From the IMG/VR virus record IMGVR_UViG_3300045988_036168: a stretch of 64,000 nucleotides of DNA. One strand, written 5' to 3'. Every line of letters starts with the position of its first letter. The first letter of the stretch is position 1. The DNA is from a virus. This document shows, one piece after another, positions 697 to 59,202 of the stretch. Under the pieces are notes generated by a model, which had not been told where the DNA came from, did no database searches, and was given only the letters and a program-made list of their open reading frames with translations. A program made the position numbers and the translations under genes.

Positions 697-1902
697 TTAA
701 GAGTCAGCCCACGGAGGAACGTCCGTGGGGCGTTGGGCATAAGAAAAGGAGCCGGATTTCTCCGTCTCCCTGTTCTGATGCTGTTTCTTGTAGAGGTTGC
801 GGCATTGGCAAAGCCTTCGCTTATCGCGTACCGCACGGTTTCCGTTGAGTTTCCGGTGGATCTCCACCGGCTCACCGATGATAGCCTCCACCTTCTTTGC
901 GTATTTCGCCCGCAGCTCGTGCGTATCGCCGTATGCCGCGTGTGCGTCCCACGCTCCGAAACTCTGGAGGATAGCGTCCTTCGTAACCTCGCCGCGCTTG
1001 TAGGCTTCCTCCCAGAACTTCACCTTCGCACGGATTCGCTGGATGCTGTCCCGTCGAAGTTTCTGGATGATGCCACCGCTTTCGGTAATGTACGAATGGA
1101 AGCCGAGGAAGTCGATGCCGTTCCTCAGCGGAAAGATGCCAGTCTTCTGGTTCAGCTCCAAACCCCAGCCGTCCATCAGCGCCCGAATGTCCTTCAGGAT
1201 CTCCTTCAACCGCTGTTTGTCTGAGAGGATGACGTAGAAGTCATCCATGTATCGCCCGTAATACTTCAGGCGGTATTTCTCTTTCATCAGGTGGTCGAAC
1301 TCGTCCAGAAACATCAGAGCGAGTAGCTGGCTGGTCTGGTAGCCGAGGGGTAGCCCGTCGGTCGTATTGATGTAGACGCACAGCAGATCATAGATCTGCG
1401 GGTCTACGCCACGCTTATCGAGCAGCGCCTTTAGTTTGCGTTTCAGCTTGTCGTGGTCGATGCTGGCGAAGAAGTGATGCACGTCTCCTTTGAGAATCCA
1501 CCCATTGGTTCCTTGCCTCTCCCGCCGGTAGTAATCGACCATGTGCTGCTTCAGCCGCATCAAACCATCGTTGGTGCCCTTACCGGTCTGACTGGCGAAA
1601 TTGTCCCGAATGAAGCTCTTCGTGATGGCTTCATACAGGATGTTGTCCACGACCGCATGGAGGACGACTTTGTCCACGAACGCGGGTGCTTGGACGAGCC
1701 GCTTCTTCGGCTCATAGACATAAAACACCTCAAACCTGCTCGGAACGTAGGTCTTGGTGCTCAGGATCGTTGACAGCTTCTTGGTACAGGCCAGAACATT
1801 CGCCTCGTACTGGGCGGTTCCCGGCTTTGACCGTTTCCGCTTTCTGGCCTCCAAGTAAGCTGCGTACAGCGTTTCAAAGCTGCACATCTCTTGATAGGTC
1901 AT
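697..1902 (-). CDS. DGR reverse transcriptase
   Basis: Start MTYQEM at 1902 (ORF 697..2139 trimmed); motifs SQTGKGT, LPLGYQTSQ (DGR-type GxxxSQ), YMDDF; TR lies 248 nt upstream. Confidence 0.9.
   Translation of the reverse strand: MTYQEMCSFETLYAAYLEARKRKRSKPGTAQYEANVLACTKKLSTILSTKTYVPSRFEVFYVYEPKKRLVQAPAFVDKVVLHAVVDNILYEAITKSFIRDNFASQTGKGTNDGLMRLKQHMVDYYRRERQGTNGWILKGDVHHFFASIDHDKLKRKLKALLDKRGVDPQIYDLLCVYINTTDGLPLGYQTSQLLALMFLDEFDHLMKEKYRLKYYGRYMDDFYVILSDKQRLKEILKDIRALMDGWGLELNQKTGIFPLRNGIDFLGFHSYITESGGIIQKLRRDSIQRIRAKVKFWEEAYKRGEVTKDAILQSFGAWDAHAAYGDTHELRAKYAKKVEAIIGEPVEIHRKLNGNRAVRDKRRLCQCRNLYKKQHQNRETEKSGSFSYAQRPTDVPPWADS
708..729. repeat. Palindromic hairpin motif CCCACGGA-N6-TCCGTGGG (copy 1 of 3)
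   Basis: 8-bp perfect stem; 13-mer GGAACGTCCGTGG (716-728) identical to 57421-57433; related copy 12376-12393; sits in the last codons of the RT gene, 35 nt before the target ATG. Confidence 0.6.
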
Positions 1903-2150
1903 AAACTCGCTTCTTTGCTGTTGTTGCTTCCTCTGGTCTGGGTATAGGGCAAGCTCCAGACCAGCCATCACTCCTAACACCGGTCGTCTTGCCCCCGGCA
2001 GCCGCAGCATCCAAGTCGGGATGGCGAGCCTCGGTGTGATGTGTTTATCGTCCATCCATGCACAGACGGGCGACAGGATATGACTCCCTTTGATGATGGT
2101 GTACTGTGTTCGTCCCATCGGAGGGATTACTAATCTCACTTTCCATCAGA
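1903..2150 (-). ncRNA. TR-RT spacer, presumed part of the DGR RNA
   Basis: 248-nt gap (in-frame upstream extension of RT ORF has no RBS); 9-bp hairpin 1933-1941/1956-1964; role inferred from the BPP-1 DGR, where the spacer after TR primes cDNA synthesis. Confidence 0.4.
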
Positions 2151-23375: not shown

Positions 23376-24857
23376 TTACTTTTCCTCCTTTGCTCTATTC
23401 TGGCGACGCTCGATCATCTTCTGGCGGGCGGAATCAGCGGAACCGACGCCGTTGCTGACAGGGGTGCGAGAGTCGCGGTTGAACATCTGCTTCTTCTGGT
23501 AGCCGACGTCCTTCTTGGAGCGGGACTCGACATCGGCGACGGCGTACTCGAACGCAGCGTTCACGAACGCATCGCTCTTGCCGTCCAGACGCATCTCGGG
23601 ACGCACAGCCTTGATGATGGCCTTCTTGGCGGCGGAGATACTCATATCCTCAACACCGTCGAGGTTCAGGGCCTTACCGATCATGCCGATCTTCACGCGC
23701 TGGCGGATGATGGCGTCGATGCCGTCGGCGTTCAGGACTTCGCCCTGGGTGTGGTCGGCAGGCGTCGCGGTGGGAATCGCGTCGTCGTCGCTGTCCTGAT
23801 TGTCGGTGTCGTCACCCTCGTCGTTGTTCTCGTCGGTGGTGTCATCACCCTCGTCGGTCTGAGGATCGGTGCAGCCAGCCTCGTCGAACTCCTTCTGCGC
23901 GAGCAGAGTGTCGATGATGTCGAACAGGATGTCCATGTCCTCGTCCTGATTGGCAATGACGCCCTTCGCGGACTCCAGATCCTCAGGGTCGCCGTCAGCA
24001 TCGCGGCGGTCACGGTTGTCCTTGACAGCCGCCACCTTATCCTCGACAGTCTGAGGCTCCTGACCGGCGGGAGCGACAACGGTATCGTCGTCATCCTGCG
24101 CAGCAGCGGGGGCGTTGGTGGGCTTGGCGCTGACTACGGGATCAGTACCCTCGGTGGGGTCCTCGTCGGTCTTGGCGGCGAGGCGCTGAGCACGGCGGGC
24201 CTTGTACTCCTCGATGGCCTTGGCGAGCTCTTCCGGGGACAGAACGCCATCAGCGCGACGAGCATTCTTGGGAGCATTTTTCTTCTTCATGACTTTTCCT
24301 CCTTTGAGAGTTCTTGCAGGATCACGGCCATCAATATTTAACCGCGCCTGTTCACCGGCTCTGGCTTCCCGGACCAAGGCCAAGTGGTTGATGCGGATGT
24401 CCCGCTGGATGGCGTCGTAGTGCTGGCCGTTCCACTCACCCGGCGTTTCATCGAGCGTCAGATTGTAGCCGAGGGACAGCTCCTTCAGGCCGCAATACCG
24501 CATCTCGTCGGTGTTGTGAATAACGATCTCCGCACGGACGTCATCCCCGCTTCGATACCCTTCTGTCAGGATGGTGCCGATCTGATGCTTCTGGACGTTG
24601 TCCTTATCCACCAGACCCGCATCATGCGTGATGATGATGGGCTTGCCCTGATACGAGGCAAGACTCTCAGCAGCGAAGACTTCCTCAGGGAGCCGAAGCT
24701 CCCTCCTGACGCTCCCGTCAGGGTTGGTGTACTCGAAGATACCCGTGCTGGTCAGGATCGGCCTGTCCATCAGGTAGCCTTCGGGAGTGAAATACGTCTG
24801 GTTCAGCGGGAGGCTGTCCAGACGGATCACCTGAGATAATTTCGGGGCCTCACTCAT
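23376..24857 (-). CDS. scaffold / prohead-maturation protein (DUF2213-like)
   Basis: Start MSEAPK (RBS GGAGGTG); PEGYLMDRPILTSTGIFEY...GKPIIITHD N-domain; long acidic linker. Confidence 0.6.
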   Translation of the reverse strand: MSEAPKLSQVIRLDSLPLNQTYFTPEGYLMDRPILTSTGIFEYTNPDGSVRRELRLPEEVFAAESLASYQGKPIIITHDAGLVDKDNVQKHQIGTILTEGYRSGDDVRAEIVIHNTDEMRYCGLKELSLGYNLTLDETPGEWNGQHYDAIQRDIRINHLALVREARAGEQARLNIDGRDPARTLKGGKVMKKKNAPKNARRADGVLSPEELAKAIEEYKARRAQRLAAKTDEDPTEGTDPVVSAKPTNAPAAAQDDDDTVVAPAGQEPQTVEDKVAAVKDNRDRRDADGDPEDLESAKGVIANQDEDMDILFDIIDTLLAQKEFDEAGCTDPQTDEGDDTTDENNDEGDDTDNQDSDDDAIPTATPADHTQGEVLNADGIDAIIRQRVKIGMIGKALNLDGVEDMSISAAKKAIIKAVRPEMRLDGKSDAFVNAAFEYAVADVESRSKKDVGYQKKQMFNRDSRTPVSNGVGSADSARQKMIERRQNRAKEEK

Positions 24858-24896
24858 TGGGCCCACCTCCTTTCGGAGTGTTCTGCAGCGTGAGCA

Positions 24897-25509: not shown

Positions 25510-26448
25510 TTATTTCATGGGGATATTCACCCCGTCGTAGTCGAACACGGGGATTGCCACACAGCGGCAACAGTAATCCTCGCCGGGGTGGCATTTGCGG
25601 CCGGTGTAGACTCGGCCAGCCTTGGTGTCGTACCACATCTCAGGCGGGTCGTTCCAATCGAAGGTCTTCCCATTCAGCGCCGCATGGCACGGGCGGACGC
25701 GGGAATCGTGGGACGTAGACCACCGATATTTCTTGCATCCGGCGTCGGTCTGCTGCATCTTCGTGATCTGCGCGTTCAGCGTCGCAAGCTGGTCACGGGC
25801 CAAAAGCTGGGCGTGGCGCTTGGACGTGCCGTACTCGCTCTGGATGTCCTTCTGGATGTCACGGATCGGTCGCCCGTTCAAGTAGCCATCCAGAATGATT
25901 TGCCGCATATTGCCGAGCGTCTCGGTCGGCAGGCTCTTGATGTAGGCCACGTTCTCGGCGATCCACCTTTGGATGGCCTGCTCGTACAGCTCGCCCGAGT
26001 AGTAGTCGTCCAGAATGTCGATGCCCAGCGTGTCCTTGACGGCGCGTTTCCACTCTCGTACCGAGGTGTTCTGCGTCATCTTGGCGATCTGCTGGATTTT
26101 GCTGTCGAGGCCGAACTGCGCGATGCGCTTTTCCAGAGCTGCAGACACTTCCTGAAGCATCTGACGGATGCAGGCGTCGAGGTCGCGGCTGTCATCCAGT
26201 CGGGAGTCTCCACGCCGTTCCCGCTTGTACTCGTTCATCATGGCGGGCAGTTTCTTCTTCAGTTCCTCGTTCAGCAGCCGCATATAGGCGCCGGCGATGC
26301 GCCGGTACTCACGCTCTGCAGATTGCGGGTATTGCGGGGTGGTCTTCGCAGGAAGGGGTCTATTCCCCCGAAACTTGGGGCGTACAGCCTTTTTAACCAC
26401 CTCTTGGTATTGGTTGTTGGTCAAAGACAAAGCCCCCTTTACGGTCAT
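25510..26448 (-). CDS. head morphogenesis protein (SPP1 gp7 / Mu F family)
   Basis: WSTSHDSRVRPCHAALNGKTF motif; follows portal. Confidence 0.8.
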   Translation of the reverse strand: MTVKGALSLTNNQYQEVVKKAVRPKFRGNRPLPAKTTPQYPQSAEREYRRIAGAYMRLLNEELKKKLPAMMNEYKRERRGDSRLDDSRDLDACIRQMLQEVSAALEKRIAQFGLDSKIQQIAKMTQNTSVREWKRAVKDTLGIDILDDYYSGELYEQAIQRWIAENVAYIKSLPTETLGNMRQIILDGYLNGRPIRDIQKDIQSEYGTSKRHAQLLARDQLATLNAQITKMQQTDAGCKKYRWSTSHDSRVRPCHAALNGKTFDWNDPPEMWYDTKAGRVYTGRKCHPGEDYCCRCVAIPVFDYDGVNIPMK

Positions 26449-26511: not shown

Positions 26512-29500
26512 CTATTTCCCATCTACCTCTTGCTGCTTGTAGACCAGCCCGTACTCATGCGCGTGTAGCTGGAGATACAAGTCCGTCTCCGCAATTAGGT
26601 CGTTGCGCGTCATGTCGCCGTCCTGATACTTCTTCTCAAGCGACTCAAGGTGCGTAGCCACCGACCTTGCAGAGTAGCCATCATAGTCGCTCGTCTTCTG
26701 TAACGAATACAGCTTGGTCTTGCTGGTCATATACATGACCTGTTCGTCGGCATTGGCAAAGCTACGGACATCGGTGTCCGAGAAGCAGCTATCCGTATCG
26801 CCGGGGTGATTATGCAGGGTGGAGTATGCCACGTTGTTCTGGCCGCTTTTTACGCCGTGTGCGCTTCCGGTATCTCTTGCGATTTCGTTTCCGTCTTCGT
26901 CATACGACACGAGGGTTTCATCCGCATTGTTGCGGATTTCAAGGCTGGCCTTCTCTGCCGATTTTCTGACCTTCGAGTCGTCAGGGGCTTTATCAGCTAC
27001 GCGCTTCCGCTCTTTTGCGACCTCTCGCAGCTTTTCATCTACCAACTCGTCGAGCTTGCCAGCCTGAATGGCCTTATCGACCTCTCGGAAGCGCATTCCC
27101 TTTTCCACCAGAAACTCTGCCTTGAAGTCTTCACTTTTCCCGTGAAGCAGTTTCGAGGCAGCAGGCGTCAGGGATGGCGCAGAGCCGCCAACTTGGCCCG
27201 GAACTCCTTCATGGCCGTGGTTGCCCGAGCCGGGGCCACCGTCGAGATCGGAGGAATCCCCTCTATTTCCGACTTCCTCAAGCGTAAGTTTCACGGCTTT
27301 GTATTTCCCAACGGAATAATCAGGGTTGGTATCAAGAACCTTGAATCTTGCCTTTTTTGAATACAGGACTTCATCCATGTCAACGTCGGCCACATCCTTG
27401 ATGGAAACACCACTCTTCGACTTGCATTCAAGCACAACGTTGTACGAATCAGGGTCATCACCGTCTCTGGATCTGAACACTCTCTTTAGAGCATCATCCC
27501 CAGTAGACCAGCTTGACAGATGACCGAGTCCGAACGTGCTGTTCCCTGACGACTCTGCGATGAACTTATCAAAGGCATCCTTGTCCATTGTCATTGCGCG
27601 CTTTGTCGTTCCTTCGTACTTATCTGAGAGCGAAATCGCTTTTTCAATGGCCGCTGCGCTCTTTTCGGCGGTAGCCTTTTCTTCACTATCCATCAGTGAA
27701 CCGCGCGTCGCATACACACCGGAGTACCCAGCAGAAGCCGCCACGACATCCTTGTAGTTCCGTGTGTAGTCAGATGTAGCATCGACCATTTCTTGCACTT
27801 CACGGTCGCTCAGTTCGCGTCCGGCGTTTTTGCTCCACTCGGATTTTTTTGCAGAGTAAACTCCTCTTTCAAGTCCGTGGCTGGTTTCACCGTCGTATGG
27901 AGAGGTGCTTCCCTCGCGCTCCTCCGAACCACCGATTTCACCTTCGCGCCCTTTGTGCCCAAAATTCCCGCTTCCCGGCCCGCCGTCTTCATCAAAAGGG
28001 GCGAAGCCTTCTGGCTCAGCCTCCCCGTTTGCGATAGCTTTCACCAGTGCAACGTCATCCGCGAACGGCTGAAACAGAGACGGCTTGAGCTGTTCGATTT
28101 CATCCAGCGTTCTGAACTGCGGGTCGGCCATTTCGCCATCCACGCAATTCGGCTCGCCTTCGTACTCAGTACACAGGAAGATGTACGGCTGAATGCCGGT
28201 GTCAGGCTCCATAGGACCTCTTCCGAGCGGGATCAGCTCTTTCGGGCTGATGCCGAACTCTTCTTCAACTTCGCGGAACGCCGCCTGCTTCGGAGACTCG
28301 CCTTCCTTGATGTGACCGCCGGGGCCACAAATCAGGCCGTGGCCGAACTCCGTCTTTCTGGTTCCACTCAGAACCTTGCCCTGAGAGACCACCAGAACGC
28401 CTACGCAGGCTTTTGTATCTTCGGGGGTAGATGTATTCCCATCACCCTTGACATCCTGTACCGAGGCTTTAGCGCGATTTTGCGGGGCATTGGCGGCTGA
28501 CTGTTGACGTTCCTCGTCGCTCATGTCCTGCGGCAGCTTGGTCGCAGCAGGTGCGGCGGCGGGAGCTTCACCGTCTCCGCCGGGGTCTTTCTTGTGCTCT
28601 TCGGTGCTGGTGCCCTCGGCATAGTCAGCGAACTGGCCCTGCTCGAAAATGCTCTGCCCAACGTCACCGGAAACCTGACCGCCCTCTGCAGGCTCGTCGG
28701 GGAACAGATTCTCGTCGTCGTATTCGTCGAGCATATTCTCGACGTCGAACTCCTCACTGTCGGCCAGCTTGGCGCGAACCTCACTCGGGTCGATAACCTG
28801 CTTGTCGATGTAAAGCTGGGCAGTCTGCGCTCTGGCGAGCTGTGTCTGCGCCCGCTTCTGGTCAAGGTCTGCCTGCTCCGTGTCGCTGAGCGACCACAGG
28901 GGGTTGAACTCCACCTTGATCTTCGGCACTTCATCCACTTCGCCGGTACGGACGCCTGCTTGGAAAATGACCGACAGCAGATAGCGCAGGTTCTTCTTCA
29001 CCATGCGCTTCTGGATGCGCTCCAGATAGTTGTACCAGTTTTCCAAATCAGCGTCGCCGGTGGCGTTCATGCCTGCCGGCGAACGGCCAAAAAGAATGGT
29101 CTGAGGAATCGAGGTCAGCGCCGACAGGAAGTTGCAGGTCGAGTCGATGACGTCGGAGACGCCGCTGAACTGGAACTGCCTGAAGTCGTAGTCCTCGCCT
29201 TCGCTGTCAATGGTAATGCTGTTCAGCAGGCCGCGGGCCATGTCAATCGTCTGCAGACGGCGCAGGACTCTGTCCTCACCCTCTTCGGTGGCAAGCTCTG
29301 CGGCCAGATCCTTCATCTTGTAGACCGCCTGAACGGAGCGGTCGAGCAGCTTCGTTGCGCTGCCGTGGGCCACTTCCGCGTCACGGATGGCCCTGTTGAT
29401 TCGCACATACTCGGGGATGCCCCAGAGCTGGTAAATCGAATTGGTCGTGTTCTCGGGCAAGATGCCGTTCTGGAACACCAGGCACCGGCTGTCGTGAACG

Positions 29501-30117
29501 GTGAACGAACCGGTGCGGCTCGTCACGTGGTAGAACTCGGGCATACCGAGGCGGGAGCCTCTGGTGCGGAACGGGTCACGCGGGTCGTAGGAGAACATAC
29601 TCTGATAGTCGGGCTGGATCACCGAGCGGTCATAGACGCGAATATCGTCAATCGACCGGATGTTGCGCCAGTCCAGAGGCTCGTCGATGCCGCGGCCGTC
29701 GTTAATCATCATCACGGCGATGGAACCTCCGAAGAGCCGCGCCCAGCGGATGGCGGTCATGGCCGTTTCTTCCCAGTCCAGCTCGTCGAGGGCCTCCGTA
29801 TAGAAGTCCTCGATTTTCTGGTCTTTGGTGCTCTCCAGCGTGAAGCCGTGCTTGATGGCCTCCTCTGCGGGCGTGTCGATGATTTTCGCAAACAGGCCGT
29901 TGCCCTCGTAGTACATGGTGAGCAGTTCATCGGGAACCACAGGCTCGGCACGGAACCGATACCCTTCCGTGGTGTCCTTGCTCGTGCCGTACTTGTTCAT
30001 CATGTTCACGTAGCCGTCGGCTCGGTAGGGGCGAACGGCCTTGCCGGTCTGCATCTCGATCAGGTGGGCGTACCTTTTCACGATGCGCTCGGCTTGGTCT
30101 TTGCGTCTGTCGTCCAT
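26512..30117 (-). CDS. portal protein fused to Nudix, ADP-ribosyltransferase-like and JAB/MPN-like domains (polyvalent protein)
   Basis: aa 1-470 portal-like (DUF1073 type); Nudix box GHIKEGESPKQAAFREVEEEFGI (28249-28320); R/SxS/E ART-like pattern (KRAM, SSWST, DEVLYSKKARFKV); HNHPGDTDSCFSDTD (26770-26814); two DGGPGSGNxGHxG...GGS linkers. Confidence 0.85.
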   Translation of the reverse strand: MDDRRKDQAERIVKRYAHLIEMQTGKAVRPYRADGYVNMMNKYGTSKDTTEGYRFRAEPVVPDELLTMYYEGNGLFAKIIDTPAEEAIKHGFTLESTKDQKIEDFYTEALDELDWEETAMTAIRWARLFGGSIAVMMINDGRGIDEPLDWRNIRSIDDIRVYDRSVIQPDYQSMFSYDPRDPFRTRGSRLGMPEFYHVTSRTGSFTVHDSRCLVFQNGILPENTTNSIYQLWGIPEYVRINRAIRDAEVAHGSATKLLDRSVQAVYKMKDLAAELATEEGEDRVLRRLQTIDMARGLLNSITIDSEGEDYDFRQFQFSGVSDVIDSTCNFLSALTSIPQTILFGRSPAGMNATGDADLENWYNYLERIQKRMVKKNLRYLLSVIFQAGVRTGEVDEVPKIKVEFNPLWSLSDTEQADLDQKRAQTQLARAQTAQLYIDKQVIDPSEVRAKLADSEEFDVENMLDEYDDENLFPDEPAEGGQVSGDVGQSIFEQGQFADYAEGTSTEEHKKDPGGDGEAPAAAPAATKLPQDMSDEERQQSAANAPQNRAKASVQDVKGDGNTSTPEDTKACVGVLVVSQGKVLSGTRKTEFGHGLICGPGGHIKEGESPKQAAFREVEEEFGISPKELIPLGRGPMEPDTGIQPYIFLCTEYEGEPNCVDGEMADPQFRTLDEIEQLKPSLFQPFADDVALVKAIANGEAEPEGFAPFDEDGGPGSGNFGHKGREGEIGGSEEREGSTSPYDGETSHGLERGVYSAKKSEWSKNAGRELSDREVQEMVDATSDYTRNYKDVVAASAGYSGVYATRGSLMDSEEKATAEKSAAAIEKAISLSDKYEGTTKRAMTMDKDAFDKFIAESSGNSTFGLGHLSSWSTGDDALKRVFRSRDGDDPDSYNVVLECKSKSGVSIKDVADVDMDEVLYSKKARFKVLDTNPDYSVGKYKAVKLTLEEVGNRGDSSDLDGGPGSGNHGHEGVPGQVGGSAPSLTPAASKLLHGKSEDFKAEFLVEKGMRFREVDKAIQAGKLDELVDEKLREVAKERKRVADKAPDDSKVRKSAEKASLEIRNNADETLVSYDEDGNEIARDTGSAHGVKSGQNNVAYSTLHNHPGDTDSCFSDTDVRSFANADEQVMYMTSKTKLYSLQKTSDYDGYSARSVATHLESLEKKYQDGDMTRNDLIAETDLYLQLHAHEYGLVYKQQEVDGK

Positions 30118-30134: not shown

Positions 30135-31559
30135 TCAAATCAGGTTGCCGACGTTGAACGCCGTCTTCGTTTCGATCTCCGCAAATGCGTTGGCGCTTGC
30201 ATCGACCATATCCTTGAACTTTCCGTCTGGGAAGTTCTCAAGCTGCGTAAGATACACCTCGTTCCACTCGCCATACATGATGTCGAAGTTGCCTGCCTGC
30301 CATTGGGCGGCCATAGGCTCGGCTCTGGCCTCTTTACTGCCGCTTTCAGCGACGGCCGTAACGTCGAAGCCAGACAGGAACTTGATGTAGGACTCGGCCT
30401 GCTCTTTACCGGCTTGGCCGGGGTCTTTCGGCAGGCGGACTCGGACGCGCTTGTACGCCGCACGGTCTGCCTGAGCAGTCAGCTTTATCGTCTTTCGCAC
30501 ATCGGAGGCGTTCATCTGCTTGTTGATGACGTCCGCGATGACGTATCGGCCGTTCTTCCGCTTGCCCATCAGGACGCCAGCGGTATAGGCCGGGTCGCCG
30601 TTCTCGGTCTTCTCGGTTGCCGCCAAGTCCCAGCAGCGAACCCACTGGATGACGTCCTGCGGCATGATGGTCAGGATCTCGCCAAGCTGCGTTCTCTTGA
30701 AGAACAGGCCGGCGGCGGCCCTGATCTTCCAGTTGCCTTTGAGGAGTCGCTCGCGCTGGATGACCGACAGTGCCTTCAGGTTTGACAGGTAGCCGGGGTC
30801 GATGCGGAGCAGCTCTTGGTTGTCGTACACAGAAGACATGATGAACGTCACCGACTTCGGCTCGTTCTTCTCTTCCGGTGTGGTCAAATTGAAGCGTTCC
30901 CAGAGTTCCTCTCTGGTGTCCGCCCAGTAAACGACCTCGTCGCGCCGAATCATGTAGCGAATGAGGCCAGACCGCTCAGGGATGGGATAGCCGGTGTCTT
31001 GGTCGATCCACCATGCGATGAACTTCGCCACCCAGCTATCGGCGTCAGGGTTGCAGGTCGCTCGAACGAACGGCCTGACGCCGCAGGTCGAACGGTTACG
31101 GGACAGCATATAGAAGAAAATCTCCTCGCTGAAATGCGTCAGCTCGTCGAAGCCAATCTCGCAGATCTGAGCGCCCTGCCAGTTGTCCAGCTCCTCCGAA
31201 CGCTCGATGTGCGCGAAGGACACCTTGGAAACCTCGTTGCCGTCCTTATCCCGAAACGACCACGTGCCGTCCGAGATTTTCCGCTGTGCCCCGTTGATAC
31301 CGTGGTACATCTTCTGGGCTTCATCCCACAGGCCGCCTTGGGCGAAAATCTGCTTGTAGTTCTTCCTGAAGATCGTGCAGCCGAAGCCCTTGACATTCTT
31401 GTATCTCAATGCCGACAGCAGCAGGCCGTAGGTCTTGCCGCCACCGGCCGCTCCGCCGTAGATGCAGATGTCCGCAGGGGTCGCAAGAAACTTCTCTTGC
31501 GGGCCGAACTGCGGCTTCAGCACACGGACTTTTCTCTCAGGACTCTTGCTGGTCGCCAT
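30135..31559 (-). CDS. terL: terminase large subunit
   Basis: Walker A GGAAGGGKT; ATPase + nuclease layout; 474 aa. Confidence 0.9.
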   Translation of the reverse strand: MATSKSPERKVRVLKPQFGPQEKFLATPADICIYGGAAGGGKTYGLLLSALRYKNVKGFGCTIFRKNYKQIFAQGGLWDEAQKMYHGINGAQRKISDGTWSFRDKDGNEVSKVSFAHIERSEELDNWQGAQICEIGFDELTHFSEEIFFYMLSRNRSTCGVRPFVRATCNPDADSWVAKFIAWWIDQDTGYPIPERSGLIRYMIRRDEVVYWADTREELWERFNLTTPEEKNEPKSVTFIMSSVYDNQELLRIDPGYLSNLKALSVIQRERLLKGNWKIRAAAGLFFKRTQLGEILTIMPQDVIQWVRCWDLAATEKTENGDPAYTAGVLMGKRKNGRYVIADVINKQMNASDVRKTIKLTAQADRAAYKRVRVRLPKDPGQAGKEQAESYIKFLSGFDVTAVAESGSKEARAEPMAAQWQAGNFDIMYGEWNEVYLTQLENFPDGKFKDMVDASANAFAEIETKTAFNVGNLI

Positions 31560-32023: not shown

Positions 32024-32935
32024 TCACTTTCCTGCCAGATATTCGGTGGCAAGCATTTCGATCAACTGCCAGCGGTTCTTGCTCGTGATGGCACCGTCCT
32101 TCTCGGCCTTCTTGATGGCCTTCGTAATGGTAGCTGCAGACTCCGCAGGGATGGCGTTGCTGCCGAAAATCTTCGTCAGATACGTCCACTCCTCGTCGTC
32201 CTTGAAGCCGACCTCGTCCATCTTCTCCGTGACGCTCTCGATCATGGAGTGGATGGCGGCGCCGACGTTGCGGATGTCGGAGAACTTCTGGTAGCGGGCC
32301 AGCGCCTCGATGAACTGCTTGCACTGCTCGTAGGGCGCGACACCGATAATCTCAGGTGCCGAGGACTCAAGATTCTTCACCAGCGCATCCATGTCCTTCA
32401 CCTGATGCGGCAGGAACGAAAACGTGATGTTCTTGAAGTCGAAATGCACCGCCGGGGACAGCAGCTTATCGTACTGCTCCAGAGGCTCCTCCATGATGTC
32501 CTTGCCGATGAAGCTCTCCAGCATATCATCCACGTCGTCGAGCATCTTGCAGATCTCGCGCAGGATGGACGGGTCATCGAAACCGCTGATGGCGTTGTGT
32601 GCCAACTGCTTCGATGCGATCTTGGAGCGGGACAGGCCGCTCACGTCGATGATGGCGATAATCTCCTTCATGCCGGCGGCGCGGGCGCTCTTGATGCGGT
32701 GGTGGCCGGAGATAATCTCCAGAACGCCGTCTTTCTCCACCAGCAGGGGCAGGCTCTCAAGCTGGCCGCGGTTCTTGATGTTCGCGGTGAGCTGATCCTG
32801 CATTTCCTTCCTCATGATGCGGGCGTTGATGTCCTGCTCCCGCACCTTATCAAGCTGGACTTTGGCGATAATCAGGCCGGTGCCCATGTCGTAAATCTTC
32901 TCGTAGCTCATTGCTGTGCTCTCTTCTGCTGCCAT
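32024..32935 (-). CDS. ParB-like nuclease-domain protein
   Basis: Start MAAEEST (RBS GAGGAGGGAG); GHHRIKSARAAG ParB/Srx motif. Confidence 0.75.
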   Translation of the reverse strand: MAAEESTAMSYEKIYDMGTGLIIAKVQLDKVREQDINARIMRKEMQDQLTANIKNRGQLESLPLLVEKDGVLEIISGHHRIKSARAAGMKEIIAIIDVSGLSRSKIASKQLAHNAISGFDDPSILREICKMLDDVDDMLESFIGKDIMEEPLEQYDKLLSPAVHFDFKNITFSFLPHQVKDMDALVKNLESSAPEIIGVAPYEQCKQFIEALARYQKFSDIRNVGAAIHSMIESVTEKMDEVGFKDDEEWTYLTKIFGSNAIPAESAATITKAIKKAEKDGAITSKNRWQLIEMLATEYLAGK

Positions 32936-34302
32936 TGTTTCTCCCTCCTCAGCCATTCGGCCAACGTAGCCTTCTCGTCACGGCCAGCCACAAGGGCGGC
33001 CTCATAGGTCAGCTTGTACCCGTTCTTCGCGTCCTCCTGCCGGTTGACCAGCTTCATGATGCCGCGAACCTCTTTGTTCTCGGCGTACTTCGTGAGCATG
33101 GCTGTACGCATCTTCGTGACCTTCTCTTGGTCGATGTCGTCGAGCAGCGTGTCCACGAAGCTCTGGTTCTGGGCCAGCATATAGCAGAGACGGCCGAGGC
33201 GGTACAGCTTGTGCGGTGCCTTCATGACGTACCACACAAAGATGGAGTCCGCAGCCATCTTCGAGATGCCGAAGACCGCGGCCACATAGCCGTCGATCAG
33301 GACAGCACGGTTGTAGGTCGCCTGCGAGCCTACGAAGTTGTGCGTCCAGAGCATCCGGTAATACTGCGCGTTGGCGCCGGCGATCTGGATAATTCGGATG
33401 TCGCTGTCCTCTGTGATCTCATAGTCGAGCGGGAGCATACTGCATTTCAGAGGCTCCAGCTTGCCCTCCTGCGGGCGCTTGATTTTCTTCCCTTTGGCAA
33501 GGGCCACGGCTTCCTCTTCCCTGTTCGTCGTGATGTACGAGTTCAGGTCGGCGCGTGTCCCAGAGCGGGCAAAGATGGTGTGGCCGACGGCCTCACCTGC
33601 CCGTTTCTCCTGATAGCACAGGAGCAGAGCGGGAGCGTCCATCATCATGTCATAGAGCTGCTGATGGCCGGTCTCAGGGTCGAACATACCGTAGGGTGGC
33701 TCTTTCCAAGTCATCTTTCCCTGCGTGTCGTAGAACTTCTCATAGCCGGCGAAATACGTCGGCGGATTCGCCACGATGATCGTATGCGGGTCGTCCTTCA
33801 CCTCACGGAGATGATCCCACATATCCAGCGGGCGGTAGCTCATACCACCGAGCAGGCTCTTCGTGGCCTCAAGCTGTCGGCGTATGCTCTCGATGTGCTC
33901 TTCACGCCTGTCGTGCAGGTCGCGCAGGATGTTGTGGAAATACTCGTTCCCTGCGCTCTTCGATGTCCGCAGATAGATTTGCGCGTACAGAGCTACGGCC
34001 GGGTCTAACAGCTCTTCATCGGAGAAGCCCTGCGCGTGGATCTGCAGCGGTTCGAGAGACTGGCCCGTGATGGCGTAGCCCATCACCGAGGTCATCATGT
34101 TCACGTCGCTGGTTTCGATCTGCTCAGGCTTGAACCCCGACTGGACTGCCAGATTCGCCATAGCGAATGTACCGGCGCATGGCTCTACGAACCGCGTGTA
34201 CCCAGAACGCCGAGCGGTCTTAATGAGCTCAATCAAAAACTTCTGCTCAACACCGTTCAGGCACCCGAGGAACATCGCTCCGGGGTCCATAAAAAACGCC
34301 AT
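32908..34302 (-). CDS. DNA methyltransferase, Dam-like (N6-A or N4-C class)
   Basis: Motif I-like FVEPCAGTFA and motif IV-like IIVANPPTYF; paired with ParB-like gene. Confidence 0.5.
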   Translation of the reverse strand: MAFFMDPGAMFLGCLNGVEQKFLIELIKTARRSGYTRFVEPCAGTFAMANLAVQSGFKPEQIETSDVNMMTSVMGYAITGQSLEPLQIHAQGFSDEELLDPAVALYAQIYLRTSKSAGNEYFHNILRDLHDRREEHIESIRRQLEATKSLLGGMSYRPLDMWDHLREVKDDPHTIIVANPPTYFAGYEKFYDTQGKMTWKEPPYGMFDPETGHQQLYDMMMDAPALLLCYQEKRAGEAVGHTIFARSGTRADLNSYITTNREEEAVALAKGKKIKRPQEGKLEPLKCSMLPLDYEITEDSDIRIIQIAGANAQYYRMLWTHNFVGSQATYNRAVLIDGYVAAVFGISKMAADSIFVWYVMKAPHKLYRLGRLCYMLAQNQSFVDTLLDDIDQEKVTKMRTAMLTKYAENKEVRGIMKLVNRQEDAKNGYKLTYEAALVAGRDEKATLAEWLRREKQWQQKRAQQ

Positions 34303-34384
34303 TGTACTGACCTCCTATCGGTTTCGAGAACACGAAAAAGAGGCGGCGGCCTTGCGGTCGTCACCTCTCAGTCGCGGTCTTCAC

Positions 34385-35056
34385 TTACATCTCGTCGATC
34401 AGCTTATCGACGATGTCCAGACAGGTCATCGCTGTCCTGCCCTTCTCATTCCAGTATTCCGCAGCGCCACCCCTAACGCTGTCGGCTACCGTTTTCACCA
34501 TCAGGCACGGAACGTCGTTGCGGTCGCAGGTCAGCAGGATCGCCGCCGCTTCCATATCGCACACATCCGCGCCGAACTCTTTGTTGAGCCAGAGCTTTTC
34601 CTCGGCCTTGCCCATGAACTTATCGCCAGAGGCGCAGCACACATGACGCAGGTTCGGGAACACTCGGCTTGCCATCTCCATAAGCCGTTCATCGGTCTGG
34701 AGCCGCCAGTCTGGGTACTCCATGTATTGACCAACAGGCACACCGTCCACGTCGGATAGGTCGTACTGCCAATGCACCACGCAGTCAACGAGGCAAGGCT
34801 CGTCGGCCATCAGGTCTTCTCTGCAGCCTCCCACTACGCCGTAATTAAGAACCGCAGCGACTTCGTAGCGGTCGATAAGGTATTGTGTTGCGGCGGCCGC
34901 GAAAATCTCACCTGCGCCGCTATACAGGGCGTAGACTTGGCTTTTGGCGGTTTGATAAAGCACTGTGCCGTAGCCGTCGTTCAAATCGTAGCCTTCGCCG
35001 TATTTCTGGCGCATGGCCTCTTCCTCGACCGCTACGATCAGTCCGATCTTCCTCAT
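34385..35056 (-). CDS. mtnN: 5'-methylthioadenosine/S-adenosylhomocysteine nucleosidase
   Basis: Start MRKIGLIVAVEEEA (RBS GAGGAG); SGAGEIFAAAAT, SGDKF, DMEAAAI patterns of the PNP_UDP_1/Pfs family. Confidence 0.75.
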   Translation of the reverse strand: MRKIGLIVAVEEEAMRQKYGEGYDLNDGYGTVLYQTAKSQVYALYSGAGEIFAAAATQYLIDRYEVAAVLNYGVVGGCREDLMADEPCLVDCVVHWQYDLSDVDGVPVGQYMEYPDWRLQTDERLMEMASRVFPNLRHVCCASGDKFMGKAEEKLWLNKEFGADVCDMEAAAILLTCDRNDVPCLMVKTVADSVRGGAAEYWNEKGRTAMTCLDIVDKLIDEM

Positions 35057-35072
35057 GGAGTCACTCCTCGAT

Positions 35073-35108
35073 GCAAGAGAAAAGGCAGCCGGTTCGCCGA
35101 CTGCCTTT
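35073..35108 (-). terminator. rho-independent terminator closing the tRNA-like array
   Basis: AAAGGCAG-12 nt-CTGCCTTT stem, then UUCUCUU on minus strand; only ~17 nt upstream of the mtnN start codon. Confidence 0.55.
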
Positions 35109-35117
35109 CTCGTATTC

Positions 35118-35191
35118 TGGACCGGGCCCCAGCTTGCGAGGCTGGAACGCCTGCCGGGGAGGCAGGAATGATGCACTTTCACCAAGCCCGG
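35118..35191 (-). tRNA. non-canonical tRNA-Gly-like element A (anticodon-position CCC), CCA encoded
   Basis: Cloverleaf CCGGGCU-UG-GUGA-AAGUGCA-UCAU-U-CCUGC-CUCCCCG-GCAGG-CGUU-CCAGC-CUCGCAA-GCUGG-GGCCCGG-U-CCA; no G18G19, no T-Psi-C-type loop. Confidence 0.5.
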
Positions 35192-36368: not shown

Positions 36369-37538
36369 TTACTTGATGGCTTCGAGCAGCTTCTCCGCGG
36401 TGTCCGTCTGCTCCCAAGTACGCTCCTCGCCGATGACGTTGCCGAAGTGTCCGTAGGCGGAAGTGTTCTTGTAGACGGGCTTGCGAAGGTCAAGCCAGTT
36501 GATAATGCCTCTGGGGGTCAGATCATAGACGGCCTCGACGGCGTCGCAGATCTTATCCTCGGCGTACTTGCCGGTGCCGTAGGTATCGACTCGGATGCTC
36601 ACGGGCTGCGGTACACCGATTGCATAGGCGAGCTGGACCTGACACTTATCAGCGATTCCGGCAGCCACGATGTTCTTTGCGATGTGGCGGGCTGCATACG
36701 CTGCAGAGCGGTCAACCTTGGTGGGGTCTTTACCAGAGAAGGCGCCACCACCGTGCGCGGCATAGCCGCCGTAGGTGTCAACGATGATCTTACGTCCGGT
36801 GAGGCCCGAGTCCGCGGCAGGGCCACCCTTGACAAATCGGCCCGTGGGATTGATGAACAGGCTGTAAGTGACCACGTCCATATCAGGCCGATAGGTCAGC
36901 AGTTCGTCGAGGACAGGCTTGATGACGTGTTTCTGCAGGGGTTCGATCAGATCCTCCGGGGCAACACATTCCTCATGCTGGGTAGAGATGACGACGGTGT
37001 CAACCCGTACCGGGTTGCCCCCCTCGTCATACTCCACCGTTACCTGTGTCTTGCCATCGGGGAGGATGTGAGGGATCGTGCCATCCTTTCTCTTCTTCAT
37101 CAGCAGGTATGCCATCTTATTCGCCAGCGTGATAGGCAGGGGCATCAGATCCGGTGTCTCGTTACAGGCGTAGCCGAACATCATTCCCTGATCCCCCGCT
37201 CCGCCGACTCCATCGTTGGTTCCCATTGCGATGTCGGGACTCTGCTCGTCGATAGCTACCATCACCGCGCAGGTGTTGCCGTCAAATCCCGCCTTGGGGC
37301 TGTCATAGCCGATGTCCTTCAGGACGCCGCGGGCGATACCGGCAAAGTCGATGTAGTGCTCCGTGCTGATCTCGCCCATGACCAGCACCATGCCGGTCGT
37401 GCAGCAGGTCTCGCAGGCCACACGGCCATTCGGGTCATGCTTCATGACCTCGTCGAGCACTGCGTCAGAGATGCGGTCGCACACTTTATCGGGATGGCCT
37501 TCCGTGACCGATTCCGAAGTGAAGAGTATCTTGCTCAT
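36369..37538 (-). CDS. metK: S-adenosylmethionine synthetase
   Basis: [22 protein letters not shown] and full-length MetK pattern (389 aa). Confidence 0.95.
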
Positions 37539-43678: not shown

Positions 43679-44851
43679 TTATGACGATGCTTTGAAGTTG
43701 TAGATGGGCCTGATAATCTCCAGCACGTCGCAGGTCGGGCCGATGCAGCCCATGATCTCCTTCGTGTCCTTGTAGGCGAACGGCGCCTCGTCTATGGTGT
43801 CGTAGCTGATACAGGAGCTATGCACGTTCCGCATCGTCTCTCGGTAGGCTCCGAGAGAAATAGACTCTCGGGCTTTGCTGCGGGACATCAGGCGGCCAGC
43901 TCCATGCGGTGCCGACTGGTTCCAATCGTCGTTGCCCTTGCCGACGCAGATCAGAGAACCGTCGCGCATATTCATCGGAATAATCAGGCGCTCGCCCTTC
44001 TTAGCAGACACAGCACCTTTCCGCAGGATCATGCTCTCGTGGTCAATGTAGTTGTGCACGGTCGTAAACTGCTCCTGCGGGACGATGTGCATAGCTTTCA
44101 GGATGGCCTTTGCGATGGCCTGACGGTTGGCCTCCGCATAACGCTGGATGATCTCCATGTCGTTCAGGTAATCGTCCATCAGTTCGCCGGTCAGGTACGC
44201 GAGGTCGGGTGCCCCGAAGTCGCTGTGCTGTTTTCTCAGTTCTTCCAGCGCACCGGCGATTTCCTTCTGCCGGCCAGCAGCCTTGTACTCGGTGACAACA
44301 CGGCTGATTTCCTCACTGGTGGGCTTTGTCATGGCCTCCATCGCTCTGCGCTGGTGCCAGTTCGCCACCTCAAGGCCGAGCTTTCGGCTGCCGGTGTGGA
44401 TCACCAGCCAGAGGCCGCCGCTCTTATCCTTGTCAACCTCGATGAAGTGATTGCCACCGCCGAGCGTCCCGATGCTGAGGAGCGCACGGCTGTTGTCGAT
44501 GCCGACGCATTTCAGGCCGCTCAGGTCGAACCACTCCTTCGGGTAGTTGTGAGTACAGAAACCGGCCGGCACATTCCAGCGGATGGCCTTGTCCAGCTCG
44601 TCAAGGTCGAGCCTCACCCGCCCCAGCTTGACGGCCAGCATACCGCAGCCGATGTCCACGCCCACGAGGTTCGGGCAGACGCGGTCGTGAATGGTCATCG
44701 TCGTTCCGATAGTACACCCAGCGCCGGCGTGAACGTCGGGCATGATCCGTACCTTGGAGCCGTCACTCACGGGATGGCGGGACAGCTTCTCAATCTGCTC
44801 CGTCGCTTCCTGCTCGATGGTCTTCGCAAAAATCTTCACATCATTGGTCAT
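43679..44851 (-). CDS. rtcB: RNA 3'-phosphate/5'-OH ligase RtcB
   Basis: PDVHAGAGCTIG, GCGM, GGGNHFIE, HTGSR, PHGAGR motifs. Confidence 0.9.
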   Translation of the reverse strand: MTNDVKIFAKTIEQEATEQIEKLSRHPVSDGSKVRIMPDVHAGAGCTIGTTMTIHDRVCPNLVGVDIGCGMLAVKLGRVRLDLDELDKAIRWNVPAGFCTHNYPKEWFDLSGLKCVGIDNSRALLSIGTLGGGNHFIEVDKDKSGGLWLVIHTGSRKLGLEVANWHQRRAMEAMTKPTSEEISRVVTEYKAAGRQKEIAGALEELRKQHSDFGAPDLAYLTGELMDDYLNDMEIIQRYAEANRQAIAKAILKAMHIVPQEQFTTVHNYIDHESMILRKGAVSAKKGERLIIPMNMRDGSLICVGKGNDDWNQSAPHGAGRLMSRSKARESISLGAYRETMRNVHSSCISYDTIDEAPFAYKDTKEIMGCIGPTCDVLEIIRPIYNFKASS

Positions 44852-57364: not shown

Positions 57365-57416
57365 GGTTACGTTACGTTTACGGTATAGGTTACGGTTACG
57401 GTATGGTTACGGTTAT
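57365..57416. repeat. Hexanucleotide tandem array (GGTTAC)n, copy B
   Basis: GGTTAC and degenerate units; 57378-57401 identical to 12302-12325. Confidence 0.85.
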
Positions 57417-57420
57417 ACAC

Positions 57421-57452
57421 GGAACGTCCGTGGATTTTTGGTCGGACGTTCC
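57421..57452. repeat. Perfect 10-bp inverted repeat with 12-bp spacer, 32 bp upstream of int (attP-core or operator candidate)
   Basis: GGAACGTCCG-TGGATTTTTGGT-CGGACGTTCC. Confidence 0.6.
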
Positions 57453-57483
57453 TATGGAATATCCCGAAAAAGGAGGACTTCGT

Positions 57484-59202
57484 ATGGCTTCTCGCATCGC
57501 CGAGAAACTGGCCGCGAAGAAGGCGGCCATCTATATTCGCGTTTCTACTCATTGGCAGGTGGACAAAGACTCCCTCAAAGTTCAGCGCCGCGAACTTATC
57601 GCCTATGTCACGCTGGTGCTGGGCATCACCGACTACGTCGTGTTTGAAGACCCCGGCTACTCGGCCAAGAACACAGACCGCCCAGAATATCAGGCCATGA
57701 TGGATCGCATCCGCGCAGGCGAGTTTACCCACCTTGTCGTCTGGAAGATTGACCGTATCAGCCGCAACCTGATTGACTTCGCCGCCATGCACGACGAACT
57801 GCAGTCCCTCGGTGTCACCTTCGTCTCCAAGAACGAGCAGTTCGACACCTCCTCCGCCATCGGTGAGGCCATGATGCGCATTATCCTGATTTTCGCCGAG
57901 CTGGAGCGCAAGACCACCGCCGAGCGCGTCACGGCCGTCATGCTCTCCCGTGCCTCAGACGGTCAATGGAATGGTGGCCGTGTTCCCTTCGGCTATTCGT
58001 GGTCGAAGGAAACAAAGACATTCTCCATCGTCCCCGAGGAGGCAAAGGCCATCCGCCGCATGGCCGAACTGTACGAGCAGTACCAGTCCTTGCTCTATGT
58101 CGCCAAGTACCTCAACGACGCCGGTATCGTCACGAAGACGGGCGGCCAATGGACGCCAACCACGGTGCGCACCATCCTGACAAACCCGTGGTACATCGGC
58201 CAGTATGTCTATAACGTCCACTCAGACGGCAAGGGCATCGAGAAGCGCGACTCTGACGAATGGATCACCGTCGAGAACCACCACGAACCCATTCTGAACG
58301 AAGATGTATTCTGCCGCATGAAGTTCCTGCTGACTCGGAACAAGCGCGGCGGCGTTCCCTCTCACAAAACATACGTCAGGAAGAACATCCACGTCTTTGC
58401 TGGCCTGCTCCGCTGCGGTCAGTGCGGCTCCAACATGACAGCCAACCTCGACCGGCGGCGAGCGAACGGCTTCCGCCCCTCCCAATACGCCTGCGGCAGC
58501 CGGCGGCGCAAAGGAACCTCCTGCACCAACAAGTACATCTCCGACACCACGCTCGGCCCGTTCGTCCTGAACTACGTCGCCAACATCATCAGAGCCTCCA
58601 AGAACTTTTCTGAGACCACGACGCCCGATGTTCTGGAGCGTAAGCTGCTCCGCGGCGAAGCGTTCGAGGACGTGGCCTCCGTCAGCACCGACGCTCTGGG
58701 CCAGCTTCTCGATGCGTTCCGATCCGCCGGTGACGCCGTGGAGTACCGCCCGCAAATCGCCTTCTCCGGTGATGACAACTCCATCCGTGAAATTGACACC
58801 CTCCGCGCTCGGCGCCGCAAGCTCGACAACGCCCTCGCTCGTTTGAACGCCCTGTACCTCTACGACGACGAAGCCATGCCAGAGAAAGACTTCGTCATGC
58901 AGCGCGGCCAGATCACCAAACAGCTCGAAGAAGTCAATGCCCGCATTGAGGAACTGCAGAACCAAGAGTCCAGCGAGGAACTGGGCGACGACTTCATCGG
59001 CAAGGCCAGCTACTACATCATGGCGAACAAGCTGATCGAAGACCGCTACATCGACTACGAGAAGTACATCCGAGCCATTGACCCCTCTATCCCGCGCAGC
59101 TTCCTCCAGCAGATCATAGACCACATCGTCGTGAACGATGGCCGCGTCACCTCCATCACATTCAAGAACGGTGCGACCCACACATTCACCTACAAGACAT
59201 GA
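57484..59202 (+). CDS. int: large serine recombinase (integrase)
   Basis: Start MASRIAEK (AGGAGG 57471-57476); AAIYIRVSTHWQ catalytic Ser region, recombinase domain, CGQCGSNM zinc ribbon, C-terminal coiled coil. Confidence 0.9.
   Translation: MASRIAEKLAAKKAAIYIRVSTHWQVDKDSLKVQRRELIAYVTLVLGITDYVVFEDPGYSAKNTDRPEYQAMMDRIRAGEFTHLVVWKIDRISRNLIDFAAMHDELQSLGVTFVSKNEQFDTSSAIGEAMMRIILIFAELERKTTAERVTAVMLSRASDGQWNGGRVPFGYSWSKETKTFSIVPEEAKAIRRMAELYEQYQSLLYVAKYLNDAGIVTKTGGQWTPTTVRTILTNPWYIGQYVYNVHSDGKGIEKRDSDEWITVENHHEPILNEDVFCRMKFLLTRNKRGGVPSHKTYVRKNIHVFAGLLRCGQCGSNMTANLDRRRANGFRPSQYACGSRRRKGTSCTNKYISDTTLGPFVLNYVANIIRASKNFSETTTPDVLERKLLRGEAFEDVASVSTDALGQLLDAFRSAGDAVEYRPQIAFSGDDNSIREIDTLRARRRKLDNALARLNALYLYDDEAMPEKDFVMQRGQITKQLEEVNARIEELQNQESSEELGDDFIGKASYYIMANKLIEDRYIDYEKYIRAIDPSIPRSFLQQIIDHIVVNDGRVTSITFKNGATHTFTYKT

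Follow-up and report, generated by a model that had tools for sequence, protein, structure and literature searches.

Polyvalent proteins and fusions of effectors to portal or MuF proteins unite a virion head domain and several conflict-type enzymes in one polypeptide (PMC5512222, PMC9503650). ADP-ribosyltransferases (ARTs) are the commonest modifying enzymes of this class, fusions of Nudix domains to portal or MuF proteins and RadC-type JAB domains are explicitly listed, and the encoding phages use terminase-portal packaging; head packaging and injection of the portal- or MuF-fused Nudix, ART and RadC domains have been put forward in the same publications as an inference. The protein described here is encoded by a 64,000-nucleotide stretch of viral DNA (IMG/VR record IMGVR_UViG_3300045988_036168, the whole of which is called the window below), in which one open reading frame (ORF) of 1201 codons continues from a portal into a Nudix domain, a predicted ART-fold domain and a domain with a JAMM/RadC-type motif, the last two of which are each preceded by a copy of a 20-residue peptide motif. 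Enzymes fused to portal or MuF proteins presumably encounter the host before any other phage protein does, and to our knowledge almost none of them has been experimentally tested.

The window protein fits the polyvalent/portal-effector class already described (Iyer et al. 2017, 2022; PMC5512222, PMC9503650), in that at least two distinct conflict-type domains (Nudix, ART-fold and JAMM-motif) are fused to a portal within the head module. In contrast to the described members, the combination and order of portal, Nudix, ART-fold and JAMM-motif domain is specific to this protein, and neither of its C-terminal domains is recognised by current Pfam models, ART-PolyVal and RadC included. New with respect to those sources are the boundary motif, two divergent domain families that the profile libraries miss, and an allelic series that includes a gene fission by a combined stop and start; neither the motif nor the allelic swapping of cassettes was found in the main text of the two papers (PMC5512222, PMC9503650). 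We read the portal, which appears to be that of a temperate gut phage of the myovirus type and a distant relative of Faecalibacterium phage FP_Brigit, as a carrier for three accessory enzymes, and the motif as a signal in the processing or handling of this cargo; in the reading as a whole we have moderate confidence.

The ORF runs unbroken from 26512 to 30117 on the minus strand, as do all of its parts given below, and starts with ATG. Gene calls on at least four public contigs (20-200 kb, from independent assemblies) give the identical protein of 1201 amino acids (aa), and the ORF is therefore not an assembly artefact. Its portal domain (aa 1-470, 28708-30117) matches Pfam PF06381, Phage_portal_3 of the HI1409 family, over aa 69-425 (E 4.3e-77, 259.7 bits against a cut-off of 33.8) and the PHROG 'portal protein' families 146 and 15528 (E 1e-197 and 5e-105). 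The latter family covers aa 22-697, so that portal plus Nudix is already an existing family. In gp30 (828 aa), the portal of FP_Brigit, the closest cultured phage, the portal and Nudix backbone is 51% identical over aa 6-690 and lies in the same order of head genes; gp30 differs in ending in a different short C-terminal tail devoid of the linker motif and of ART or JAB-like domains. Between portal and Nudix lies an acidic low-complexity spacer rich in Pro, Ala and Gly (aa 471-564, 28426-28707), in which the translation and Pfam reveal neither a copy of the linker motif nor a family match. The Nudix hydrolase domain (aa 565-700, 28018-28425) scores 52.4 bits with Pfam NUDIX against a cut-off of 21.1 (aa 571-677, E 7e-14) and contains a full GX5EX7REUXEEXGU box, GHIKEGESPKQAAFREVEEEFGI (aa 601-623, 28249-28317), with the residues G601...E607...R615-E616-V-E-E619-E620-F-G622-I. 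All NCBIfam equivalog scores fall far under their cut-offs and assign no substrate class. The nearest solved sequences are NUDT1/MTH1 (4e-11) and MutT (1e-7), for which reason ADP-ribose seems no likelier as a substrate than a compound of the nucleoside-triphosphate type.

The middle domain (aa 732-958, 27244-27924) is predicted to adopt an ART fold of the R-S-E type. An exhaustive HMMER search found about 20 homologous domains, and in an alignment of 14 homologues with 27-67% identity R840, S869, W870 and E916 (R109, S138, W139 and E185 of the domain) are invariant; R840, S869 and E916 are the catalytic candidates, lying in the motifs TTKRAM (aa 837-842), SSWST (aa 868-872) and DEVLYSKKARFKV (aa 915-927). 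The AlphaFold 2 (AF2) model built from the 14-sequence alignment has a mean predicted local distance difference test score (pLDDT) of 87.4 and a predicted template modelling (TM) score of 0.85, and the top 50 Foldseek matches in the PDB are without exception R-S-E ADP-ribosyltransferases, led by Vis (E 3.4e-10, TM about 0.6) and including Tre1, C3, XopAI, HopU1, ExoS, SpvB and CDTa. PHROG 16619, 'minor head protein', matches the domain as well (5e-13). No Pfam family does so even at E up to 10, among them ADPrib_exo_Tox, ART and ART-PolyVal, and no match informative of family was obtained from NCBIfam, PADLOC or PDB sequences. The domain shares the fold and the R / S-x-[ST] / E residues with T4 Alt, other head-packaged R-S-E ARTs and the C3, Vis and Tre1 toxins, and like Alt it is encoded among head genes; however, identity to Alt and the toxins is 12-18%, and T4 Alt is incorporated on its own whereas the window domain is fused to the portal. 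A further difference is Met in place of the first residue of the [QE]-x-E motif (M914, within DMDEV), a position held by Gln or Glu in 12 of the 14 aligned sequences and by Met in the window protein and its closest homologue. In C3-like and arginine-specific ARTs the residue two before the catalytic Glu governs transfer to the acceptor, and the domain may consequently differ in its acceptor or be chiefly an NADase.

The C-terminal domain (aa 980-1201, 26515-27180) is probably, though not demonstrably, a JAB/RadC-like metalloenzyme. Its family is small: in the seven informative sequences, which go down to 25% identity, E1067...H1102-N-H1104-P...S1113-x-x-D1116 is invariant, and a profile search with their alignment found no further distant members. 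The JAMM-type motif proper, HNHPGDTDSCFSDTD, occupies aa 1102-1116 (26770-26814); the spacer from His to Ser has eight residues in the window protein and the canonical seven in distant members of the family. The signature E...H-N-H-P-x7/8-S-x-x-D is common to RadC/JAB (MPN+) proteins, and in the AF2 model (pLDDT 90) it is placed as in those proteins, with HNH closing a strand and SxxD opening the helix that follows. The top five PDB matches of the model are all RadC (2qlc), at a weak E of 0.13-0.75 and a target-normalised TM of about 0.4, and cytidine deaminases appear lower in the list. Against BFVD the model strongly matches (8e-10 to 1e-4) gut-phage proteins that are uncharacterised as well as fusions annotated 'minor capsid protein', and weakly (E 0.02-0.3) entries for RadC, MPN and metalloproteases. 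Set against RadC/JAB proteins, the domain has a helical N-terminal extension of about 85 residues and no profile similarity outside ten columns: hhalign with E. coli YicR and a RadC alignment pairs just these columns around HNHP, with a probability of 1.8-8.7%, and Pfam (RadC and Prok-JAB included), PHROG, NCBIfam, PADLOC and PDB sequences yield no match informative of family. As a separate observation, the model also matches proteins of unknown function from large eukaryotic DNA viruses in BFVD (E 3e-5 to 2e-3), namely Frog virus 3 3R, African swine fever virus F317L and iridovirus and pithovirus proteins.

An earlier note, written from the letters of the window, had described a portal ORF that extends far beyond the normal length of about 470 aa and carries a perfect Nudix box, an ART-like domain and a JAB/RadC-like site. 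The motifs that it quoted are each present in the translation at their positions, and the great length is borne out by the single ORF and by its identical product on the independent contigs, in which neither frameshift nor stop separates the C-terminal domains. The N-terminal portal and the complete Nudix box both have Pfam matches above the curated cut-offs, and the ART-like call holds at the level of the fold and of the invariant R, S and E. Pfam, applied to the C-terminal region, matched the NUDIX domain and failed to match the ART-fold and JAB-like domains. The JAB/RadC call keeps its invariant JAMM-type motif and weak RadC fold matches; the profile-level support that had been sought for it did not materialise, as Pfam, PDB-sequence and profile-profile comparisons gave nothing beyond the ten-column HNHP stretch.

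The ART-fold and JAMM-motif domains are each preceded by a copy of GGPGSGNxGHxGxxGxxGGS, a motif of 20 residues. Copy 1, DGGPGSGNFGHKGREGEIGGS (aa 711-731, 27925-27987), matches the consensus GGPGSGNFGHxGRPGxVGGS, and copy 2 is DGGPGSGNHGHEGVPGQVGGS (aa 959-979, 27181-27243). The two linkers are identical at 15 of 21 residues and at just 34 of 63 nucleotides, and a scan of the 64-kb window in all six frames shows the core GN.GH.G in these two places alone. An exhaustive search with aa 711-1201 retrieved 668 proteins, mostly through the linkers alone and with up to nine copies per protein. The 287 copies in the best 150 of these 668 proteins define the consensus GGPGSGN[F]GHxG[R]PGxVGGS, in which all Gly and both Ser residues, together with the Asn and the His, are conserved to 98% or more and Gly stands at every third position across 15 residues; the median spacing between copies is 241 aa, or roughly one domain. 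The domains present in motif-rich proteins (ART-PolyVal, ADPrib_exo_Tox, Zeta_toxin and Fic) are those that make up polyvalent proteins.

Searched for as a degenerate DNA pattern, the core of the motif occurs in at least 120 stretches of IMG/VR and in just 29 of a genome collection with one genome for each of 185,579 species, the latter mostly in metagenome-assembled genomes of Clostridia. The matches listed contain 129 complete motif-bearing viral ORFs (103 with a single copy; median length 491 aa), in which the first motif lies at a median position of residue 49 and the commonest architecture is a short leader, the motif and one domain. A leader of 6-70 residues followed by the motif is likewise seen in 60 of the best 150 proteins of the exhaustive search. 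Within the same 129 ORFs the motif is fused to portals in at least 16, to MuF in at least 12 and to DUF2213 in at least three, and in the Pfam-checked cases it comes shortly after the head domain. In three IMG/VR contigs (L017, L031 and L071) the motif directly follows a DUF2213 domain, a head-interior domain of protease/scaffold type, and precedes a scaffold-like tail; effector fusions are therefore not its only setting.

Conservation of the motif lies in the peptide; its DNA is scrambled. Among the 171 distinct viral copies in the matches listed, the flanking GG and GGS, which were no part of the search pattern, are conserved to 99-100%, identity at third codon positions is just 32%, and codons of the TCN as well as the AGY family occur at each of the two invariant Ser positions. 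A role as a DNA-level recombination site alone was rejected on these third positions and on the 34 of 63 nucleotides shared by the window copies, and an AT-hook, suggested by the GRP core, was dismissed since both window copies have other residues in place of R and P. Searches of cultured phages by tblastn with the motif, a nine-motif polyvalent protein and a leader-motif-ART protein gave no match, for which the low-complexity filter and a lack of cultured relatives are the probable causes. No description of the motif turned up in the literature that could be searched or in the main text of the papers on polyvalent proteins and on MuF toxins. The two near-identical linkers of the earlier note are thus real, and its suggestion of flexible joints falls short, since they are copies of a constrained motif that also stands near the N-terminus of many stand-alone effectors.

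Comparison with sister phages identifies the locus as a cassette site at which the linker motif marks the boundaries of modules. The window contains a variable cassette, 27244-28054 on the minus strand, which takes in the last part of the Nudix region together with linker 1 and the ART-fold domain; on either flank of it the DNA of three contigs (L002, L003 and L004) agrees with that of the window at 97-98% identity. Homology by blastn breaks off at window position 28055, at the end of the Nudix region, and resumes at 27243-27249; in L003 and L004 it resumes exactly at 27243, the first base of linker 2. Five arrangements occur. The window has portal-Nudix-motif-ART fold-motif-JAB-like in 1201 aa; L008 and L009 have portal-Nudix-motif-JAB-like in 948 aa; in L003, L004 and one more contig the latter form is split by a stop in linker 2 into adjacent genes of 721 and 226 aa; L002, L006 and L007 have portal-Nudix-ADPrib_exo_Tox in 1026 aa, followed by a separate JAB-like gene of 267 or 277 aa; and P0001 has portal-Nudix-motif, a HEFAH zincin-like domain, and motif-JAB-like. 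By Pfam, the ADPrib_exo_Tox domain of L002 sits at the same position as the ART-fold domain of the window, and in the separate gene of the fourth arrangement a leader of 24-34 residues and then the motif precede the JAB-like domain. The clusters of this separate gene, with 72 and 202 member sequences, are the most populated ones for the JAB-like module, which is also fused to MuF in P0009.

The fission consists of two changes in neighbouring codons of linker 2 on the three contigs: a Gln codon CAA has become TAA, and the next codon GTT has become GTG. Stop and start abut as TAAGTG, with GAAGGAG 11 nt upstream, at L003 7998-8003 and L004 3106-3111, equivalent to about 27193-27198 of the window. 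Reassignment of the in-frame TAA in L003 and L004 is unlikely, as the neighbouring genes are of normal length. Beyond the immediate sisters, portal-Nudix-linker-JAB-like fusions of 948 and about 1137 aa are found in IMG/VR contigs, and fused portals recur in diverged lineages with 948, about 1137, 1102, 1052, 1158 and 1174 aa. More distant portals show other combinations, including ART before Nudix (P0015 and L042); L042 is a Brigit-like metagenomic portal of 1158 aa with the motif and ADPrib_exo_Tox inserted ahead of Nudix. The locus hence forms a natural allelic series on one backbone, with an ART-fold, a classical ART, a zincin-like or no middle cassette and with the last module fused or split, and it could serve to test whether covalent attachment to the portal matters. 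Polymorphic toxin systems such as CdiA with its VENN motif, Rhs with PxxxxDPxGL and MuF toxins likewise combine a trafficking part, a demarcating peptide motif and interchangeable C-terminal cassettes (PMC5576092). Unlike theirs, the window motif repeats between several cassettes and is conserved as a peptide with scrambled DNA; cassette variability is shared with those systems, but the ORF listing of the window has no adjacent immunity gene downstream, MuF following after 63 nt with no small ORF between.

How might such a portal work? Beyond the portal fold and the acidic spacer, the protein carries a MutT/MTH1-like Nudix, an R-S-E ART-fold and a JAMM/RadC-motif domain. Portals are dodecamers at one vertex of the capsid, with their C-termini facing the capsid interior. 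The C-terminal extension would thus lie inside the capsid, and every head would acquire each enzyme in twelve copies with no need for a separate packaging signal. The motif would be a signal for the processing or handling of head-internal cargo, and most likely the site at which modules are cut free, as suggested by the constraint at the peptide level and by its recurrence after portal, MuF, DUF2213 and short leaders. Freed modules would then leave through the portal and tail channel together with the DNA and act early on host targets, which agrees with what has been proposed for Alt, MuF and polyvalent proteins (PMC5512222, PMC9503650). A wider possibility, which we regard as tentative, is that the motif is a self-contained signal for head-internal cargo across a large group of tailed phages, be it an autocatalytic or protease-specific cleavage site or a tag for incorporation into the capsid, and that modules behind it are loaded and released for injection. 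The invariant Ser, Asn and His and the N-x-x-H spacing recall Asn-lyase sites such as NPTH of FlhB/YscU. A signal for loading and release would explain how modules can move among portal, MuF, DUF2213 and short-leader contexts.

Several points weigh against the portal as a carrier with a processing signal. Virion content, cleavage and injection are inferences for this protein and its close relatives alike. Since no copy of the motif lies between portal and Nudix, the Nudix domain may stay tethered, and Met914 may alter the transferase activity of the ART-fold domain or reduce it to NAD hydrolysis. A protease specific for the motif was not identified, and in the six-frame scan of the 64-kb window no other head protein carries the motif, so that a prohead-protease site common to the head proteins is not indicated. 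The assignment of the JAB domain has no profile support from Pfam or hhalign. The last module, moreover, works as a separate gene in sister phages that are about 98% identical, and covalent tethering is therefore not obligatory; that the most populated JAB-like clusters (202 and 72 members) are stand-alone makes the fusion to the portal dispensable.

According to an alternative that we consider unlikely, the enzymes are never released. They would remain tethered to the portal or be active as free, unassembled portal monomers late in the producing cell, for example by removing nucleotides or by modifying proteins of host or phage as assembly proceeds, and the motif would be a structural spacer, its five G-X-Y triplets adopting for instance a collagen-like or polyproline-II conformation. 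The portal gene belongs to the late genes, and Gly at every third position over 15 residues suits a spacer, as do the junction of portal and Nudix, which dispenses with the motif, and the failure to identify a protease; the stand-alone JAB-like versions, too, indicate that function needs no portal. Yet a passive spacer does not account for four residues (Ser, Asn, His and Ser) that stay invariant while hundreds of copies have diverged, nor for stand-alone proteins that have kept the motif at 6-70 residues from their N-terminus, and the fusion partners (portal, MuF and DUF2213) are consistently located in the head interior. Rather less probable still is that the fusion represents a transient, near-neutral state of a hypervariable accessory locus, the modules being ordinary soluble accessory or toxin-like proteins and the motif an N-terminal element of the module, such as a tag for docking to a partner, that has nothing to do with the portal. 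In its favour are the five arrangements, including the fission on three contigs, in sister phages with about 98% identity in their flanking DNA where this was compared, and the short leader, motif and single domain that form the commonest viral architecture among the matches listed. Against this, fused portals recur in the diverged lineages listed above, the exact 1201-aa form persists on the four or more contigs, and the same modules are also fused to MuF. That the long ORF is an assembly or sequencing artefact joining separate genes is barely credible: sister contigs do carry a stop in linker 2 or a stop after the ART domain, but the same product is encoded by the independent contigs, a 360-aa fragment from another assembly (P0152) crosses the junction of ART-fold domain, linker 2 and JAB-like domain, and homologues exist for every segment of the ORF.

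If the motif is indeed a signal for cleavage or loading, it would provide a simple sequence rule for recognising head-packaged effectors in viromes, and a handle for loading chosen proteins into phage capsids.

The surroundings of the portal gene are those of a head module, with the large terminase upstream, MuF downstream and DUF2213 and capsid genes beyond, all named coordinates lying on the minus strand. The terminase gene (30135-31559; Pfam Terminase_6N and Terminase_6C) is directly upstream, and the gene for a MuF-like head morphogenesis protein (25510-26448; Phage_Mu_F, 8.5e-19) directly downstream. A head-interior protein of the DUF2213/Pa193_gp24 family (Pfam DUF2213, 1.3e-31) is encoded at 23376-24866; its Brigit counterpart is annotated as 'head maturation protease', and DUF2213/Pa193_gp24 has been observed inside the capsid of Pa193 and proposed to be a scaffold (PMC11456595).

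Further features of the window concern the phage at large. A large serine recombinase with Resolvase, Recombinase and Zn_ribbon_recom domains (57403-59202, plus strand) indicates a temperate phage or prophage. Upstream of the terminase genes, a block at 32024-35185 (minus strand) that is conserved in sister contigs encodes a ParB_N-like protein, a 464-aa fusion of a DAM-like methyltransferase with a phage GNAT-like domain, and a PNP_UDP_1 nucleoside phosphorylase. The window also encodes an RtcB RNA ligase (43679-44851, minus strand), which may repair tRNA or other RNA cleaved by host defence, and a full-length S-adenosylmethionine synthetase (36369-37538, minus strand). At the edge of the window lies a diversity-generating retroelement, whose reverse transcriptase (697-2139, minus strand; RVT_1, 2e-19) stands beside a 130-nt repeat at 2147-2276. 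A second copy of the repeat, at 59-188 and near the tail and baseplate genes, differs only where the first has T (A on the coding minus strand), which is the adenine-specific signature of a template repeat and its variable repeat.

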